A DNA stretch of 64,000 bases, taken from the NCBI GenBank assembly GCA_015233675.1, contig JADFXH010000007.1, positions 44,162 through 108,161 of the forward strand. The letters run 5' to 3'. Under the pieces are notes generated by a model. It ran no database searches, had not been told where the DNA came from, and saw nothing but the letters and a program-made list of their open reading frames with translations. Of the stretch, positions 45,170 to 61,657 are shown one piece after another. Positions within the stretch are counted from its first letter, which is position 1; each line of letters starts with the position of its first letter. The position numbers were made by a program, and so were the translations under genes. This DNA is from Candidatus Omnitrophota bacterium (GTDB lineage Bacteria > Omnitrophota > Gorgyraeia > Zapsychrales > Fredricksoniimonadaceae).

Positions 45170-46271
45170 AATTTTTATTCCTTTTTCTTTCGGGCATGAG
45201 CTTTTCTAATGCCTTCTCAGCCGCTTTTTTAACGTCTTGCTCTTTATCAGAAAGCAAATTCTTGACTACGGTCAGCGCTCCCTCGGGTTTAACGATTGAC
45301 AACATCTCCAGCAAACTTATACGGACATAAGGATTAGTGTCTTCCCAAGCTGTAATTGCCTTCTTAACACCTTCCTTGCCATAATAAATCCCCAAATAGG
45401 TCACGGCAAGCCCGCGGATATGCTCGTCACTGTCACTCAACAGGCCATCGAGAATCTTACGGTTCCTGTCACTCACATGACTGCCGAGCCCCTTGACCGC
45501 CGCTGTCCTGACCTTGGCATCAGCGTCATTCATGCCCAAGTCAAAGAATCCTTCAGCTTCGCCTTGTTTCATCCGTGATACATTCTTGATAACAGCAAGG
45601 CGGACCAGGCTGCTCTCATCCTTCATCGCAAATTCGTAAACCTGGTGCAGGATATCTTTCGGGGTAATATGGGCGATCTGGCCGATAGCGACCTCGCGTT
45701 CACGCTGGGTGCCCATTGAAAGCTGATTGATATTCTTTTCAAAAAGCCTCCTGTCCGCATCACAATTGAAACTGGCCGTCTCCAAAAGCCGGGTTAAAGT
45801 GTCATCCGGCCTGATCCTCTCCTCAACAAACGGAGAGCTCGCTGAACTTTCTTCCTCAACGGCTTTATTAACCTCAGATTCGACAGTACTCGTTTCTTCA
45901 AGCTCAATTTCGTCTTCTACTACGGCCTCTTGCTGGATCTCACCTTCATCTTCCTTTTCATCTTCTACTGCAGATTCCGCTTCAAGCTCATCTTCAACCT
46001 CATCTTCAATCTCATCTTCCTCTTGATAGACGGCTGTGTCATCCTCTGACTCTTCCTCATCTTCATCCTCAAGCTCCTCAATCTTCGTTATCCTTTCATC
46101 CAGATAATCCAAAAGCCTCGTAATCTTTTCAATCTCTTGTTCTTTTGGGCGGTCTTCAGATGCAAAACCAAAACTTATCTCTTTAGATTTATAAAGTTTA
46201 TAAACCGCTTCGCCGAACAAAAAGATCAACTTTCTCTGTTTAGACTTAAGTTCTTGCAGATGTTGATCCAT
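45150..46271 (-). CDS. acidic-domain plus HEAT-repeat protein
   Basis: RBS AGGAGAG lies 7 nt before the ATG. Residues ~65-150 are extremely Glu/Asp-rich (EELEDEDEEESEDD...EDEIEDEVEDELEAES...). The C-terminal HEAT units are DADAKVRTAAVKGL, DSDEHIRGLAVTYL, DTNPYVRISLLEML and DKEQDVKKAAEKAL. Confidence 0.65.
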   Translation of the reverse strand: MDQHLQELKSKQRKLIFLFGEAVYKLYKSKEISFGFASEDRPKEQEIEKITRLLDYLDERITKIEELEDEDEEESEDDTAVYQEEDEIEDEVEDELEAESAVEDEKEDEGEIQQEAVVEDEIELEETSTVESEVNKAVEEESSASSPFVEERIRPDDTLTRLLETASFNCDADRRLFEKNINQLSMGTQREREVAIGQIAHITPKDILHQVYEFAMKDESSLVRLAVIKNVSRMKQGEAEGFFDLGMNDADAKVRTAAVKGLGSHVSDRNRKILDGLLSDSDEHIRGLAVTYLGIYYGKEGVKKAITAWEDTNPYVRISLLEMLSIVKPEGALTVVKNLLSDKEQDVKKAAEKALEKLMPERKRNKNYGKRKR

Positions 46272-46334
46272 GAATTTTCTCTCCTAATTGTTAATTACAC
46301 CGTACTTGTTTAGCGTTCAGAAAAACTCAACAAG

Positions 46335-46360
46335 GTCATCCTGAGCCTGAAGAGCTAAGA
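46335..46360. repeat. GTCAT-type palindromic-unit repeat, single arm
   Basis: GTCATCCTGAGCCTGAAGAGCTAAGA lies in the 110-nt gap between the DtxR-like gene and the acidic HEAT gene. Confidence 0.5.
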
Positions 46361-46381
46361 ATAATAGATAATTATATAATA

Positions 46382-47140
46382 TTATCTTCGCCCTGAAAGA
46401 ATTGCCAGAACTTTTTTAATCCAATTTCCGCCCTTGTCTTTCTCATCAGCAGTCCTGTGGCAGCCCTCATCATTAGCTTCATTAAAATTCTTCCAAACGG
46501 ATATATTCGCCACAACATCCTGATCAAGGGCAATGCTTGATCCCTCGCATTCAATAACATATGTCGGATAATTCTGATGAAGCTTGACAATGACACCGGG
46601 GCGTATGCATAACCCATCGAGTTTGTGGATCTGCTGGTCGTTCTTACAATTAATATAAGCGATCCGGGCCGATTCTCCAAGCTTAATATCAGACAAAGGA
46701 ATTATGAAACTGGAAGCGCTCTTCATGGCCTGCCGGCAGCACTCACCCTCCGGTATAGGCATGCCGTGAGGGCATTCCTTAGGGTGTCCCAGAAGCGTAC
46801 AAATGCCGTTAACAAGCTCAAGTGAAACCGTATGCTCGAATTCACACGCTATCTGTTCAAGGTCTCCCCCGCCTAAAACATCGGCAACAAGCCGCTCCGC
46901 GAGCCGATGCGCCCTGATCAACTGACGGGCCCTTGCTTCGCCATCGGCTGTAAGTTTAATAATAGAGTCCTCTGGGTTTTGCTCAAGCATGCCTAGCAAA
47001 GAAAGCTCATTAATGATTTTGGAATCAAAAGAACGCTTCATGGTTTTCTTCAAAAAATCCAGCGAAGTCTCACCCTGCTCTTTCATATACCAGAGCTGCT
47101 CAATATGTTCGTCTTGTTCAACATTTCTTTCTATAGCCAT
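46382..47140 (-). CDS. DtxR/IdeR-family metal-dependent regulator with C-terminal FeoA/SH3-like domain
   Basis: A winged-helix N-terminus is followed by the LIRAHRLAERLVADVLG dimerisation/metal helix and EFEHTVS...HPKECPHGMPIP metal-site residues. The C-terminal FeoA-like region is LSDIKLGESARIAYI...GVIVKLHQ...IECEGSSIALD. Confidence 0.7.
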   Translation of the reverse strand: MAIERNVEQDEHIEQLWYMKEQGETSLDFLKKTMKRSFDSKIINELSLLGMLEQNPEDSIIKLTADGEARARQLIRAHRLAERLVADVLGGGDLEQIACEFEHTVSLELVNGICTLLGHPKECPHGMPIPEGECCRQAMKSASSFIIPLSDIKLGESARIAYINCKNDQQIHKLDGLCIRPGVIVKLHQNYPTYVIECEGSSIALDQDVVANISVWKNFNEANDEGCHRTADEKDKGGNWIKKVLAILSGRR

Positions 47141-48000
47141 ACCCGCTCCACCACTTTCCCGGCGCCCAAAGCTAAAACGCCATACAACATCAAGGCCAGC
47201 ACTGATGGCGATGATGAAATCTTCATTCTGAATGCTCCCAAAAATGCCAGAGGCTGATAATAAAAAGTTTTCTGAAAATTTGACCCCTTAAAACTTTGGC
47301 GCGGCAAAGCATCTATGTCGTTCAACCATGCTTTCCAGCGGGACTTCTCGGCGACAGTCAGCATCTGGACTTGTTGAGGCTTCTCAAATTGCACCACCTT
47401 GGCCTTCCAACCGTCAGTCAAAAGCAGCTCATCCTGCATGGGAAGATGATCTTCTGTCAAACCCTTAACAAATATCCGGCTCTCATAATCCGTAATCAGC
47501 GCTGTGGTTTTATCGAGCTTCACCGCGAAAGCTGTCCCCCTGACGCCGGCAATAGCGACAGGTGTACGCACCTTGAAGGTCGAGCCTTTCTCAAGATTAT
47601 CAAGTTTTAGCTTGATCTCGCCCTTATCCATAAAAAGTGTCGTGTCCTTCTGGATCCTGTTGCTTTCAAAAAATACCCGCGTATCGGCACCGATACGCAT
47701 GATATCTTTATAAACATCATCATAAGCGACTTCGACATAAGCACCCTTGCTTGTCGTGATTTCATCCTGCGGGTTTAAGAGCATGCCGGCACTTAGAACT
47801 ATCGCCTCCCCGCCGCGCTTAACAACGACACCGCCTTCGAAACGTACGATACGCGCGCGATCAGGGGTTTCGCTGGCCAAAAAATTGACCGCCAGAAGGA
47901 TTGCCAAGAGCGCCCCACCGGCCATTAAAATATGGGTAGAATTTGACGTATAACGTGCAATAAAATTAAAAACGATTTGTTTTTCAGAAGTCCAGCGCAT
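47131..48000 (-). CDS. membrane-anchored FecR-domain protein
   Basis: An N-terminal TM (ILMAGGALLAILLAVNFLA) is followed by VRFEGGVVVKRGGEAIVLSAGMLLNPQDEITTSKGAYVEVAYDD, a beta-rich FecR-type pattern. It overlaps the regulator gene by 10 nt. Confidence 0.5.
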   Translation of the reverse strand: MRWTSEKQIVFNFIARYTSNSTHILMAGGALLAILLAVNFLASETPDRARIVRFEGGVVVKRGGEAIVLSAGMLLNPQDEITTSKGAYVEVAYDDVYKDIMRIGADTRVFFESNRIQKDTTLFMDKGEIKLKLDNLEKGSTFKVRTPVAIAGVRGTAFAVKLDKTTALITDYESRIFVKGLTEDHLPMQDELLLTDGWKAKVVQFEKPQQVQMLTVAEKSRWKAWLNDIDALPRQSFKGSNFQKTFYYQPLAFLGAFRMKISSSPSVLALMLYGVLALGAGKVVERVWL

Positions 48001-48012
48001 TATACTCCTACA

Positions 48013-49977
48013 TTAGTGAGGCATCGTTAAAACTAGCAGCCAGTTAAGAGCTCCTGCCAGGATGAACGATGAGATAAAAATCAACGCCGCCATCGCCATC
48101 GCGGTTTTAAATCCCATCTCCCTGCCGATCGCGGTAACATTCGCCACACAAGGGAAAGAAATCGTTGTCACAACCACAGCAACAATAGACTGGACATAAT
48201 TCAATGACCCCGCATTCACCATCTTAAGGATAAGACCGGCGGCCGCTTCACGCCGGGCAAACGCAAGCAAGAAAACATCGACAATATCCTTAGGCAAACC
48301 CATCCAACCAACGATAAGAGGCGTCAACAGCTGTTTGATCAGATTCAACAAACCGGTCTTTTGAAAAGCAAAAAGACCGGCCGCAGATAACAAAAAAATC
48401 GGCAGGGCTTCCTGAAGAAAATCAGCAACGCGGTGGTAGGTTTTACGAAAAACCGCCTTTAAGCTTGGAAATCGCATTGGCGGGATCACCTGGATAAAAG
48501 AGCTTGCTTCTTTACTTTTGATCATCTTATTGAGGATTATCCCGGCCCCCATCTCGCAGAAGCCCAACATCGCAAAAACAATCAAAAAAGCGCTGATCCC
48601 CACCTTTGCAAGAATGGCCATGGAAATACCCAACTGCGCGGAACAAGGAATGGCAAACGCGATCAGGAAAACTGCAATGAACTTCTCCTTGGGAATCGTC
48701 AAGCTGCGCGCGCTCAAAGTCGCCATCGTCTTACAACCGAATCCCAAAACCAGCGAGGTGACCGCATTGCCCGGAATCCCAATCTTCGCAAAAATCCTTT
48801 TGGAAAAAACTGTAAAATTCGTAATATACCCGCTGTCTTCAAAACAACCAAAAATAAAAAAGAACACAGATAGAATAGGAAGTACGGTGCCTATGGCGTT
48901 AAAAAGACCAAGCGTTAATATGCCGTAGTCGCCGATCAAAAGGTCTTTCCAAAACGGCGGCAGGGTTAATTTTGATATCAAACTGGTCACTGGAAAAACG
49001 AGGAAGAAATCGATGAATTTATCGAGCGCTCCCGATACATAAACAACACTTAAATAAACGACAGCCATGAAAGCCAAAAAAATCGGTATCCCTAAAACAG
49101 GATCACGGCTGGCCCTTGTAAAATGATAAGAAAATCCCTGATACGTCATTTTCTGTTTCTTGATGACAGCCGCAGAAATTTGATCGACCCAACGGCTGCG
49201 CCTTTCGATGAAAACTTGATGAATATTCCCCTTCATCTGCCGCCGCACCTTGTTTGTTTCCTGACGTATAAGAGCGGCCCTTGGACTTCCAAATCTTTTT
49301 TCCAAAAACTTTTCGACGAATGGATCAGTCAACAGAAGCAGACTCGCGATTTTATATTTGAATTCCAAATCAAAAGGCAATTCCGCCGCCAACGCAATGA
49401 TGCATTTCTCTATCGCCAAACCATACTTAAGATCAAGAGACCCTTTGCGCGCGTGGCCTATGGCTTCTTTGATTTTCTCTTTGCCCAATCCGCGTGACGC
49501 TATTGATTCAACCACCGGTACGCCAATAATCCGCTCAAGGGCTTCGGAGTCGATCCAGATCCCCTTACGCGCCGTCTCATCCATGGAGTTAAGGACAATG
49601 ACCATCGGGGTCTCCAGTTCCAAGAGTTCGGCGGTCAACAGCAAAGATTGTTTATACTGGCTGGCATCAATGCATTGAAGAATAACATCCGGCGCCTCTG
49701 CTAAAATCATGTCACGGACCGCAATTTCTTCTTCGGAATGAATATAAAGGCAGTGCAGGCCGGGCGTATCGATGATCTCGTAATACTTATCTTTAATCCG
49801 TGTCAGTGACCGCCTCATTTCAACGGTCGTGCCGGGATAGTTGGCGACAATGTTATACTCGCCGGTTAAATTATTGAAAATCTGTGTTTTTCCTGTATTG
49901 GGAATCCCGATGATAGCGACCTTCTTCACCTTCGTCGCCTCGGGAACAGTAAGAATGGGGGGCTGGTTACTTTCCAT
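48013..49977 (-). CDS. feoB: ferrous iron transporter FeoB
   Basis: The N-terminal G-domain has IIGIPNTGKTQIFNNLTG (G1), DTPG (G3) and NSMD (G4). It is followed by the polytopic gate/permease domain. Confidence 0.85.
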   Translation of the reverse strand: MESNQPPILTVPEATKVKKVAIIGIPNTGKTQIFNNLTGEYNIVANYPGTTVEMRRSLTRIKDKYYEIIDTPGLHCLYIHSEEEIAVRDMILAEAPDVILQCIDASQYKQSLLLTAELLELETPMVIVLNSMDETARKGIWIDSEALERIIGVPVVESIASRGLGKEKIKEAIGHARKGSLDLKYGLAIEKCIIALAAELPFDLEFKYKIASLLLLTDPFVEKFLEKRFGSPRAALIRQETNKVRRQMKGNIHQVFIERRSRWVDQISAAVIKKQKMTYQGFSYHFTRASRDPVLGIPIFLAFMAVVYLSVVYVSGALDKFIDFFLVFPVTSLISKLTLPPFWKDLLIGDYGILTLGLFNAIGTVLPILSVFFFIFGCFEDSGYITNFTVFSKRIFAKIGIPGNAVTSLVLGFGCKTMATLSARSLTIPKEKFIAVFLIAFAIPCSAQLGISMAILAKVGISAFLIVFAMLGFCEMGAGIILNKMIKSKEASSFIQVIPPMRFPSLKAVFRKTYHRVADFLQEALPIFLLSAAGLFAFQKTGLLNLIKQLLTPLIVGWMGLPKDIVDVFLLAFARREAAAGLILKMVNAGSLNYVQSIVAVVVTTISFPCVANVTAIGREMGFKTAMAMAALIFISSFILAGALNWLLVLTMPH

Positions 49978-50000
49978 AGGGCTGCGGTAATTCTGTTATA

Positions 50001-50058
50001 GATTCCCGCTTTCGCGGGAATGACATAAGCTTCTTAAGAATGACATACTACTTATGTC
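50001..50058. repeat. nested palindromic units (GTCAT-type family) between the feoB start and the upstream stop
   Basis: The minus strand contains GTCATTCCCGCGAAAGCGGGAATC (8-bp hairpin ATTCCCGC/GCGGGAAT) and GTCATTCTTAAGAAG. In addition, GACATAAG (50022-50029) pairs with CTTATGTC (50051-50058). Confidence 0.6.
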
Positions 50059-50845
50059 CTCCGAATAGCATCTTGGGAAAAAGGGATTCACTGTGGGGCT
50101 TATCCTTTGTTTTCCCTGAGTGATGCTTGTCATCGGTTGCTTCTGAATCGGTCATATCCGAATCAATCATTACAGTCTTAATGGGACCATCAGCCCCTTC
50201 GGATTTTTCATCCTTATCGGCTTCTTCAATATTTTCTTGAATTCCCGGCACAGCTTCTTGAGGGGCAGGTGCTGGCGGCTGCTCTGGCGTCCGTGAAAAA
50301 TATTTCTTTGTCTTATCAACGCCGACCCCGCGCAAATGAAACGTGATCGTAAAATCTTTCCATTCGAACACGCGGTCGAGCTCGGCTTTAATGACTTGCT
50401 CAATCTCATTTAATTCCTCATAAATCGAGGAAACACCATCTAAACCAATGGCAATTGAAATCTCAACATCCTTTTTGCCTTTATGTTCAAATTCAATGCT
50501 AACATCAGAAGCGCACGGGCTCTGCTCAATAATCTGCAGGATAAAACTCCTGACCGCCTTTTCAGGGATACTCAAAGGCTTGCCGTCTTTTTCAACCTCG
50601 ATCACATGAGGCGCGGGTCTGGTCCTCGCAGAGAAGATCAAAAGGATAAATCCTAAAACAACAAAAAAAGCCCCCACCCCGGCAATAGTCGTGAGTGATC
50701 TCGGAGTTGCCATTAAATTGTTATAAAATTCCAGCAGCTTTTCAGAAGGCAGACGCCCCAGACCAACAGCAACAAGGACAAGGCCTTCCAACATGCACAA
50801 CGCCGCGGCGACCATCATAAACACTTTTATAAAAAATGATTTCAT
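50048..50845 (-). CDS. 2-TM membrane protein with Asp23/AmaP-like core and acidic tail
   Basis: The start was moved to the ATG at 50845 (MKSFFIKVFMMVAAALC), with AGGAGGA upstream. The track extension reads through the hairpin repeat. The C-terminal tail is Asp/Glu/Lys-rich. Confidence 0.45.
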   Translation of the reverse strand: MKSFFIKVFMMVAAALCMLEGLVLVAVGLGRLPSEKLLEFYNNLMATPRSLTTIAGVGAFFVVLGFILLIFSARTRPAPHVIEVEKDGKPLSIPEKAVRSFILQIIEQSPCASDVSIEFEHKGKKDVEISIAIGLDGVSSIYEELNEIEQVIKAELDRVFEWKDFTITFHLRGVGVDKTKKYFSRTPEQPPAPAPQEAVPGIQENIEEADKDEKSEGADGPIKTVMIDSDMTDSEATDDKHHSGKTKDKPHSESLFPKMLFGGHK

Positions 50846-50886
50846 TTCAACACCCATCCTCCTATAAATAACCATTTTGTATGTCC

Positions 50887-50906
50887 CCTCCCCCTCAAGG
50901 GGGAGG
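50887..50906. repeat. CCTCCCCC-TCAA-GGGGGAGG hairpin repeat
   Basis: Perfect 8-bp GC stem with a 4-nt loop, followed by the AATAAAAATC tail shared with the copies at 3252 and 34788. It is intergenic. Confidence 0.75.
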
Positions 50907-50915
50907 AATAAAAAT

Positions 50916-51257
50916 CTACAAATTAAACAACAAATCACGGCACGAAGGAGGTATCCTTAATTTCCCATACCTGCTCTCGACCCTCACCTCTATGGCCTTT
51001 GCCATATTCTTAAGATCTTCTTTAATCTGATTTGTTTTGCCAGACCCCAGCTTGATCTGGGTCCCCAAAGACATGATCCTTACCGTCTCGGAAAATGTCA
51101 TTGCATCACAAATACGATTAATGTCCTCTTTCATGACGGACTCAATGTCAATGCCGTTTAATTCCTTGGCAATCGAGGAGCCCTTATCAAGCCGGCTTAT
51201 CCCTTCGCGAGCGGCATTGGTCAAAAAAGAAGCCATTTGTTCTTTAATATATGACAT
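50916..51257 (-). CDS. hypothetical soluble protein (cluster-specific)
   Basis: The start was moved to the ATG at 51257 (MSYIKEQMASF...), 1 nt after the stop of the upstream PDZ gene. No family was recognised. Confidence 0.4.
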   Translation of the reverse strand: MSYIKEQMASFLTNAAREGISRLDKGSSIAKELNGIDIESVMKEDINRICDAMTFSETVRIMSLGTQIKLGSGKTNQIKEDLKNMAKAIEVRVESRYGKLRIPPSCRDLLFNL

Positions 51258-51258
51258 T

Positions 51259-51813
51259 TTACTTATTAGGCTGAATCGGTAAAAACCCTTCCATCTCTCC
51301 TTCACCGATAAAAATAATACCCTGTTTCTTGCGCAAGCCCCGCATATAGGTTATCTTCGCATCTTTTTCCGGAGGAGCCTTGGCCAAAAGATCCTGGAAC
51401 TGCTGTAAACCGGTAATATCCTTGGTATTAAAGTTCAGAATGACATCGCCTTCTTTTAGTCCGGCCTTATCCGCCCATGAGTTACCCATGACACCCGTGA
51501 TCTTGACTTTGCCGCCGCCAACCTGGATTGCCTCAACACCCATGATTTTAATGAGCACCGGCGCATCCTGCCCTTGAGCAATTGGCGGTGCCCCGGGCAT
51601 TACCACCTGCTGTAATGCGCCCTGGTTGGAATAATATCCCTGTCCACTGCCGGGTACCGGACAATATGCACTCTGTTTAAACATATCCGATGTCCTGATT
51701 TCATGCAGAGCATCTTGGGCTGTATCCTGCACAGCGTTATTAGTAAATAACGCGATAAGGATCATAACAAAAAACGCCCCGGCGCATATACTAATAATAA
51801 GTTCTTTTTTCAT
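51259..51813 (-). CDS. membrane-anchored PDZ-domain protein
   Basis: The ATG at 51813 has AAAGGA 6 nt upstream. An N-terminal TM (ISICAGAFFVMILIALF) is followed by the PDZ core GVEAIQVGGGKVKITGVMGNSWADKAGLKEGDVILNFN. Confidence 0.6.
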   Translation of the reverse strand: MKKELIISICAGAFFVMILIALFTNNAVQDTAQDALHEIRTSDMFKQSAYCPVPGSGQGYYSNQGALQQVVMPGAPPIAQGQDAPVLIKIMGVEAIQVGGGKVKITGVMGNSWADKAGLKEGDVILNFNTKDITGLQQFQDLLAKAPPEKDAKITYMRGLRKKQGIIFIGEGEMEGFLPIQPNK

Positions 51814-59871: not shown

Positions 59872-60135
59872 CTATTTCCCTAACTTTTCAGAGTCGATAT
59901 TAAACCTCTCAATCGCGGTATTGCATTCTTTGCAAACCCACAGATCCCTCTTTGAACCCAGCATATACAAACCGATAAAGAGAAGAGGAATACCTAGCAC
60001 CATGCCAATCCAAAAAAGCGTGGCCAGGATTCCGGCGATGATAAAAAACCCGGCGACCTTACGGTTGTAGCGAGGGCCTGAATACTGCTGCATTTCACCG
60101 TTACAATGTGTGCAAATGATTGGCTTACCTGCCAT
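59872..60135 (-). CDS. small membrane protein: split zinc-ribbon (CxxC ... CxxC) around a 2-TM hairpin
   Basis: 87 aa. CTHCNG is followed by two TM helices (FFIIAGILATLFWIGMVLGIPLLFIGLYML) and then CKECNT. Confidence 0.5.
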   Translation of the reverse strand: MAGKPIICTHCNGEMQQYSGPRYNRKVAGFFIIAGILATLFWIGMVLGIPLLFIGLYMLGSKRDLWVCKECNTAIERFNIDSEKLGK

Positions 60136-60164: not shown

Positions 60165-60234
60165 GTCATTCTGAGCCCGAAGGGCGAAGAATCTTAAGGA
60201 GTCTTAAGATCCTTCAGCTTCGCCTCAGGATGAC
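60165..60234. repeat. GTCAT-type palindromic element, two inverted arms (long hairpin)
   Basis: GTCATTCTGAGCCCGAAGGGCGAAGAATCTTAAG ... CTTAAGATCCTTCAGCTTCGCCTCAGGATGAC. The arms are imperfect reverse complements and fill the gap between two genes. Confidence 0.7.
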
Positions 60235-61563: not shown

Positions 61564-61657
61564 GTCATCCTGAGTGCAACGAAGGATCTTAAGACTCTTA
61601 AGATTCTTCGGCAAATATAACGATTGCCCGGTTTAAGGGCCTTCGCCTCAGAATGAC
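61564..61657. repeat. GTCAT-type palindromic element, two inverted arms with an insert
   Basis: GTCATCCTGAGTGCAACGAAGGATCTTAAG ... GGCCTTCGCCTCAGAATGAC lies in the gap between the PDZ gene stop (61664) and the start at 61538. Confidence 0.65.

Follow-up and report, generated by a model that had tools for sequence, protein, structure and literature searches.

The iron-uptake genes of the locus

The subject of this account is a group of three genes on the minus strand of a 64,000-nt stretch of Candidatus (Ca.) Omnitrophota DNA from contig JADFXH010000007.1 (hereafter the window, to whose positions all coordinates refer), which encode a ferrous iron transporter, a membrane protein with a FecR domain and a protein of the DtxR type. 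The original prediction took them for an iron module embedded in a magnetosome cluster and without a separate feoA gene, in which the third gene encodes an iron-responsive regulator and the second a FecR-like sensor. In order of translation, with the names that are justified below, they are the following.

48013..49977, minus strand: feoB, a Mad17-type ferrous iron transporter of 654 amino acids (Pfam and TIGR00437)
47131..48000, minus strand: a FecR-domain membrane protein with two transmembrane segments, 289 amino acids, encoded between mad17 and mad30 (PF04773)
46382..47140, minus strand: a Mad30 orthologue of DtxR fold, 252 amino acids (PF02742 and PF04023)

Direct reading of the sequence confirms these coordinates and both predicted junctions of the three open reading frames (ORFs), a 12-nt gap separating feoB from the FecR-domain ORF, which in turn overlaps mad30 by 10 nt. 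The flanking genes of the window have MamE, MamP, MamM, MamB, MamA, MamQ and MamO-Cter/TauE as their best matches, and further neighbours best match HEAT-repeat proteins resembling Mad23-26. The triad therefore lies inside a magnetosome gene cluster, as had been proposed, and its place in the main cluster is between the mamO-Cter/AmaP-like genes and mad23.

The first of the three genes encodes a protein with FeoB_N (E = 9e-48), two Gate domains and FeoB_C in Pfam, and with a TIGR00437 score of 336.3 bits against a cutoff of 315.65, which places it in the FeoB family. By homology, then, it is a complete, GTP-gated Fe2+ permease. In a neighbour-joining tree it groups with the FeoB proteins of other Omnitrophota magnetosome clusters.

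Identity of the DtxR-type protein

The third ORF matches Fe_dep_repr_C (PF02742) over residues 64-131 (E = 4e-21) and FeoA (PF04023) over residues 147-215 (E = 5.9e-9; 36.3 bits against a cutoff of 23). Its product is 51% identical over 227 residues (E = 1e-84) to KJU83257.1, the 'magnetosome protein Mad30' of Ca. Magnetobacterium bavaricum, the gene for which comes after two tandem feoB genes. Moreover, contig k255_12352 of Ca. Magnetocorallium paracelense XS-1, annotated as mad30-mad17-unknown-mad28 (PMC10278575, Table S3), is one of the 80 loci (L082) that a scan of reference genomes provided for comparison, and in it a gene of the same family adjoins feoB; the 80 loci also include Ca. Magnetobacterium casense and the strains XYC and XYR. 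From the identity to KJU83257.1 and the XS-1 annotation together, therefore, the window gene is a Mad30 orthologue and its feoB is Mad17. In the literature mad17 and mad30 are given as homologues of feoB and feoA and are thought to supply magnetosome iron, and the pair is already known to be associated with magnetosomes. The absence of a separate feoA, which the original prediction had remarked upon, is the normal state of the system.

A search with the window protein gives 957 family members at E ≤ 1e-5, all of which carry PF02742 and PF04023 only, and at E ≤ 1e-30 there are 224 clusters at 50% identity. In the AlphaFold model the N-terminal domain is a winged helix (helices at residues 7-21, 27-37 and 40-48, and two strands) with a predicted local distance difference test (pLDDT) score of about 90. 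A Foldseek search with the model finds full-length IdeR, DtxR, SloR, ScaR and MtsR at E~1e-12. As modelled, Mad30 is thus shown to have the complete three-domain DtxR/IdeR fold, consisting of a degenerate winged helix, a metal-binding and dimerisation domain and an SH3/FeoA domain.

The window pair resembles the Mad17/Mad30 pairs of magnetotactic Nitrospirota and Desulfobacterota, for which KJU83257.1 and DJD_03158/03159 of XS-1 serve as references, in its PF02742 and PF04023 domains, in the adjoining feoB and in its link to a magnetosome cluster. It differs from them in the FecR-domain gene that stands between its two members and in its location inside the main cluster; in M. bavaricum the FecR gene is missing, and two feoB genes are arranged in tandem.

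Mad30 in the place of FeoA

The position of mad30 with respect to feoB is consistent across the comparative loci. In 72 of the 80, feoB lies 5' of mad30, either directly or within 0.8 kb; in two it lies 3', and in a further two the arrangement is cut by contig ends. A separate FeoA was sought in Pfam scans of ORFs, as a single-sequence phmmer search with E. coli FeoA missed even the FeoA domain of the window's own Mad30. Positive control aside, none was found among the 86 small ORFs that lie outside the long genes of the window, which bears out the earlier claim that the C-terminal domain of the supposed regulator is the only FeoA-type sequence present. Nor was one found in the long neighbouring genes scanned singly, the long ORFs of positions 1-38000 being covered only in part, or among the small ORFs, 115 in all, that border the pair in 49 related loci.

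These results, together with the identity of Mad30, fit the suggestion of the original prediction that the FeoA-like domain may also be the partner of FeoB, in the role of FeoA. In these operons Mad30 is hence shown to stand where FeoA would be expected, and, as far as sequence can tell, its FeoA-like domain probably serves FeoB. The likeness to FeoA consists of the SH3-type FeoA domain, encoded beside feoB with no other FeoA nearby. The differences are that canonical FeoA is a stand-alone protein of ~75 amino acids usually encoded 5' of feoB, whereas the domain in Mad30 is the C-terminus of a 252-amino acid protein encoded 3' of it. FeoC, another partner of FeoB, also has a winged helix.

Some loci depart from the usual arrangement. 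Two tandem feoB genes precede mad30 in L075 as they do in M. bavaricum. A 421-amino acid FeoB-type permease that has only Gate, FeoB_C and Gate, and no G-domain, is encoded directly 5' of the Mad30-family gene in a complete 1.82-Mb Omnitrophota genome (CP070807.1; L002/L035), in the flanks of which magnetosome-type genes were not seen. Orphan Mad30 genes occur in L076, L077 and L079 (Ca. Magnetomicrobium XYC, Ca. Magnetobacterium casense MYR-1 and XYR), the one in MYR-1 lying between hydrogenase/Nuo-like and uracil-DNA-glycosylase-like genes with no feoB within 7 kb.

Metal site and DNA-binding surface of Mad30

From DtxR, IdeR and MntR, Mad30 retains the fold, the dimerisation and metal domain, the linker and the SH3 domain. 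Over the 120 clusters for which conservation was computed, residues H78, E82, C99, E102 and H103 are invariant and correspond to H79, E83, C102, E105 and H106 of DtxR. The likewise invariant E11 and E14 lie on helix 1, with E11 at the position of DtxR Met10, as in MntR. All the primary metal-site ligands (M10, C102, E105 and H106 of DtxR) are thereby represented, with glutamate for methionine, and the metal-site residues that a regulator of the predicted type should possess are present on alignment. Of the ancillary-site residues of DtxR (H79, E83, H98, E170 and Q173), the first two thus have counterparts in H78 and E82; the position of His98 is occupied by an invariant E95 or is deleted, depending on the alignment, and for the SH3 ligands no alignment was obtained. 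Mad30 also has invariant residues beyond these, including extra cysteines, at C114, H119, C123, H125, C134, C135, D168, H172, H188, C198 and W216, with C165 nearly so. The CPHG-PIP linker is conserved, and in DtxR a metal-dependent switch of the SH3 domain is known; conservation of the linker suggests that this switch could be retained in Mad30.

Mad30 differs from the same repressors in its DNA-binding surface, in the want of a match to known operators and in the linkage of its gene to feoB at the position of feoA. The Pfam helix-turn-helix (HTH) model PF01325 does not match Mad30 even at E ≤ 10. In comparison with IdeR of M. tuberculosis, the canonical DNA-contact residues are all lost or deleted: R27 is replaced by D, Q43 by K, R47 by E, R50 by L and R60 by S, and R29 and G38-P39 are missing. 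Residues 22-62, which contain the HTH, are the least conserved folded segment in a family that otherwise varies very little; their top-residue frequency is 0.53, where the other folded domains reach 0.81-0.85. Net charge in the putative recognition helix averages -3.9 across the family, as opposed to 0 in DtxR and MntR.

As for operators, the original prediction proposed to look for DtxR/IdeR-type palindromes in the cluster; the best matches to DtxR, IdeR, MntR and Fur boxes are all within shuffled expectation, known consensus sequences being the only ones used. The spacer 5' of feoB, moreover, is not conserved. In the comparative loci, six small flanking ORFs match Fur (best E = 2e-31). These Fur-family genes stand directly 5' of mad30/feoB and on the same strand in L056, L063, L066, L067, L068 and L087, the order being fur-mad30-feoB in the magnetotactic Deltaproteobacteria metagenome-assembled genomes (MAGs) L063 and L067. 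From the degenerate HTH, the lack of an operator of known type and the adjacent Fur genes, therefore, a metal sensor acting by way of its SH3 domain on FeoB is favoured over a protein acting on DNA, and the part of the original prediction that made Mad30 an iron-responsive regulator is not supported.

The alternative is that Mad30 is a working metal-dependent repressor of the DtxR family, with a non-canonical operator through which the feo genes or the magnetosome cluster would be autoregulated. Its intact primary metal ligands agree with this, as does its public annotation as a 'metal-dependent transcriptional regulator'; archaea have DtxR regulators adjoining feo genes. PgMntR of Porphyromonas gingivalis (PMC4805248), a DtxR-family protein which like Mad30 has FeoA-type C-terminal domains, is described as a repressor, which makes it a real precedent, although it differs in having twin FeoA domains where Mad30 has a single one and a degenerate HTH.

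Several points also weigh directly against a non-DNA-binding partner of FeoB. The winged helix that completes the IdeR/DtxR fold is predicted with the high confidence noted above. In the window protein the recognition-helix segment (helix 3), KRSFDSKIINELSLLG, is mildly basic, with a net charge of +1 at the least acidic end of the family, and this charge would leave room for a non-canonical mode of DNA binding. DtxR-family repressors normally carry an SH3/FeoA domain, the presence of which is alone uninformative on FeoB binding. Lastly, feoB is absent from the flanks in four of the 80 loci (L046 and the orphans L076, L077 and L079), such that the function of Mad30 may not need to involve FeoB in cis. 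Set against the silent HTH model, the lost contact residues, the variable and acidic HTH, the want of a known-type operator box and the neighbouring Fur genes, these points leave a repressor unlikely in our estimation.

The FecR-domain protein

The ORF between feoB and mad30 matches PF04773 over residues 79-169 (E = 1e-11) and has hydrophobic segments at about residues 24-44 and 262-284. Its AlphaFold2 model (pLDDT 80.8) has an N-terminal transmembrane helix, a beta domain at residues 50-213 and C-terminal helices that include the second hydrophobic segment. With Foldseek, the beta domain finds the periplasmic domains of PupR (6OVK) and BDI_1681 (4M0N) at E~1e-6, with a TM-score on the target of about 0.55 and an rmsd of about 3 Å. 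The family comprises 39 proteins of at least 43% identity, all from Omnitrophota, after which the next matches fall to E~1e-6, and no paper describing it was found in the literature. In the comparative set feoB and mad30 enclose the gene at 15 of the 80 loci, all of them Omnitrophota clusters, and in five annotated relatives it overlaps mad30 by 4-17 nt.

The likeness to the FecR/PupR anti-sigma regulators is restricted to the periplasmic beta domain. The anti-sigma domain of about 80-90 residues is not present, the cytoplasmic stretch before the first membrane segment being some 23 residues long, variable across the family and too short to hold one; conversely, the window protein has a second, C-terminal hydrophobic segment that the regulators do not. 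Genes for an extracytoplasmic function (ECF) sigma factor or a TonB-dependent receptor that might act as transducer are found neither in the surrounding 10 kb or so of five syntenic loci (precomputed Pfam assignments) nor among the scanned window genes, and, unlike the regulators, the protein is confined to Omnitrophota magnetosome clusters.

The FecR-domain protein might, in spite of this, be a transmembrane sensor that detects iron in the periplasm or lumen and passes a signal to FeoB and Mad30, the three proteins forming one regulated uptake complex. The close junctions in the window, the retention of the gene order in 15 loci and of the mad30 overlap in five relatives, and the resemblance of the beta domain to a periplasmic signalling domain would all accord with such a complex. 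PF04773, however, occurs in many proteins unrelated to iron, the Leptospira adhesins for example, and the gene and the pair occur apart in both directions. The magnetosome cluster of L008 (ERZ27254745 k141_927915) has the FecR-domain gene in its usual slot with neither feoB nor mad30 there, and, conversely, L011, L016 and L018 have feoB-mad30 without a FecR-domain gene and branch within the same FeoB/Mad30 clade in the trees. From the missing anti-sigma domain, the neighbouring genes and this double dissociation, the protein is best regarded as a cluster-specific accessory and not as a FecR-type sensor, and its link to Feo is positional only. The sensor of the original prediction thus finds little in its favour, and the wider idea of a three-protein sensing complex seems to us improbable. 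The gene order in L008, which resembles Omnitrophica WOR_2 GWA2_45_18, is p129, AmaP-like and FecR-domain genes, followed by a mad23-like gene (p129 and the AmaP-like gene are described with the upstream neighbours of feoB, below).

Link of the pair to magnetotaxis

Mam-type neighbours lie within 7 kb of the pair in 31 of the 80 loci, and 27 of the 80 come from MAG studies of magnetotactic enrichments; one or other criterion applies to 41. In the known magnetotactic Nitrospirota the Mad17/Mad30 pair is often far from the main cluster, because of which the other 39 loci are uninformative. The Mad30 family is strongly linked to magnetotaxis.

It might be argued instead that feoB-mad30 serves the cell at large as its general ferrous-iron uptake system, with no special role for the organelle, and that its place in or close to the cluster is accidental. 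In this regard, 39 of the 80 loci have no magnetosome-type neighbour in their flanks, and at a P0020-type locus the neighbours are ordinary (RND efflux, YgaP-like and ApbE), with an ACR_tran-YgaP context that is common to the cluster-type L003. Moreover, in the trees L011, L016 and L018 fall among the cluster-type sequences. As already said, however, missing neighbours are weak evidence where the pair is often distant from the main cluster. The 41 linked loci are drawn from bacteria that are rare among genomes, and the pair recurs in the clusters of at least four phyla. We consider such a general uptake system quite unlikely. A related candidate, a generic feo operon of Omnitrophota and Planctomycetota without connection to magnetotaxis, was dropped when a wider query set found Mam-type genes beside many of the loci.

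In four Planctomycetota loci (L023, L039, L045 and L050) one or two MamB/MamM-like cation diffusion facilitator (CDF) transporters and a PDZ protein like the 190-amino acid one of the window are followed by feoB and mad30, a block that may be a compact iron-handling core of the magnetosome clusters in that phylum. In the P0020 locus, which is without magnetosome genes, feoB-mad30 is immediately preceded by ACR_tran (RND efflux) and YgaP-like genes. The same genes stand just 5' of the complete cassette in L003/L015, a locus of the cluster type, and this common context may point to a single chromosomal site at which mad genes have been gained or lost.

A proposed mechanism for the triad

The triad is probably the Omnitrophota form of the Mad17/Mad30 uptake pair, in which Mad30 would be a FeoA-type partner of FeoB and not a repressor, with the FecR-domain protein as an accessory. 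Under such an arrangement the FecR-domain gene would have been inserted between mad17 and mad30 and be translationally coupled to both. Mad30 would act as a dimeric, Fe2+-sensing cytoplasmic partner of FeoB of the FeoA type, its SH3 domain docking on the N-terminal domain of FeoB, and occupancy of its DtxR-type metal site could then tune transport or hand iron onward; transcriptional repression would have no part in its action. The FecR-domain protein, held by two membrane anchors with its beta domain presumably facing the periplasm or the magnetosome lumen, would serve as a cluster-specific accessory, for instance an adaptor or localiser, in preference to a FecR-type anti-sigma factor.

A more specific form of this proposal is that Mad30 is a metal sensor of DtxR descent which has given up DNA binding and become a FeoA subunit of the transporter, gating FeoB or handing off Fe2+ post-translationally in response to cytoplasmic iron, while in Omnitrophota the FecR-fold protein couples the periplasmic or lumenal side. 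This we put forward tentatively, as possible and still short of probable. Were it true, Mad30 would be a natural fusion of sensor and FeoA which shows how FeoA-type proteins control FeoB. The hypothesis offered, in other words, is of a metal-sensing FeoA that acts on a transporter instead of on DNA, and it bears both on the control of FeoB by FeoA and on how magnetotactic bacteria direct large fluxes of iron to an organelle without poisoning the cytoplasm. The literature has carried Mad30 as merely 'FeoA-like'. The DtxR fold with its degenerate HTH, the consistent absence of FeoA and the Omnitrophota-specific insertion of a FecR-fold gene go beyond the descriptions found, and attention is drawn to the FecR-fold membrane protein, conserved and as yet unnamed, which is peculiar to the magnetosome clusters of Omnitrophota. 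If Mad30 is an ordinary repressor, the finding shrinks to the annotation of a known gene pair.

The start of feoB and the surrounding spacers

Both ends of the triad are bounded by short spacers, and two further genes lie upstream.

49978..50047, minus strand: spacer 5' of feoB, 70 nt, with a ~60-nt lineage-specific insertion and two hairpins
46272..46381, minus strand: spacer after mad30, 110 nt, with one hairpin arm (46335-46345, CTCAGGATGAC) like a repetitive extragenic palindromic (REP) element
50048..50938, minus strand: AmaP-like membrane protein (NCBIfam AmaP, 50.7 bits, just below the cutoff of 55)
50916..51305, minus strand: 129-amino acid protein (p129) without a family match, 5' of the AmaP-like gene

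The sequence upstream of the feoB start codon ATG 49977, GCAGCCCTATG, contains no Shine-Dalgarno sequence, as had been observed. Alignment to the two closest relatives (L009 and L058) gives ATG 49977 as the homologous start, and GGAG or GTAG stands before feoB in the relatives where the window has GCAG. An alternative start at GTG 49929, with GAGG before it, is disfavoured, since it is ATG 49977 that aligns with the starts of the relatives.

The hairpins claimed to lie 5' of feoB are indeed there, although they are not nested, as had been supposed, but adjacent, at 50022-50058 and 50002-50021, the latter with an 8-bp stem and a GAAA loop. The spacer folds with -23.4 kcal/mol (z = -2.64; 2 of 200 shuffles fold equally well), the feoB-spacer hairpin is unique within the window and no terminator-like T-run follows. 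In L009 and L058, from which the ~60-nt insertion of the window is absent, feoB abuts the upstream gene. Absence of the Shine-Dalgarno sequence and presence of hairpins are thus both due to one lineage-specific insertion, which, on the alignment, has displaced the ancestral Shine-Dalgarno sequence of feoB. Scans of 45900-51400 for promoters and terminators gave counts at background, and neither spacer holds a terminator.

The insertion is related to a family of hairpins in the intergenic spacers of the cluster, which resemble REP elements or miniature inverted-repeat transposable elements (MITEs) and have the form GTCATYCTGAGGCGAAG ... TCTTAAGA x2 ... CTTCG..CTCAGRATGAC. Two copies are complete (60165-60234 and 61564-61657), and one consists of a single arm that closely follows mad30 (46335-46345); the 11-mer CTCAGRATGAC occurs five times against an expectation of 0.04. 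The insertion has two 8-mers in common with this family, the motifs GTCATTCT and TCTTAAGA being present in it and in both full copies. Judged by these comparisons, the hairpins are real without being a conserved feature, and are best described as a putative inserted REP-like element that has no conserved role. The palindrome ATCTTAAG-N5-CTTAAGAT, considered as an operator candidate, has no match at that spacing, and the motif belongs to the REP/MITE-like hairpin element.

Other genes of the cluster

The AmaP-like gene stands 5' of feoB in nearly all Omnitrophota cluster loci in which the upstream flank is present; in L008 it is 5' of the FecR-domain gene and not of feoB. Homologues of p129 occupy the equivalent position in L001, L003-L005, L007 and L008 and in loci of related genomes. 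The whole p129-AmaP-like-feoB-FecR-mad30-mad23 cassette is found twice in MAG nDJH6bin5, on two contigs (L017 and L028), which could reflect two magnetosome clusters or a duplication in binning or assembly.

Elsewhere in the cluster, between the MamP gene and a 438-amino acid gene and directly after a REP-like element, lies an unannotated ORF of 87 amino acids (59872-60135, minus strand), with zinc-ribbon-like CxxC...CxxC motifs that flank a hydrophobic segment. The set of small ORFs to which it belongs gave only weak zinc-ribbon matches in Pfam, which are not tied to a particular ORF.

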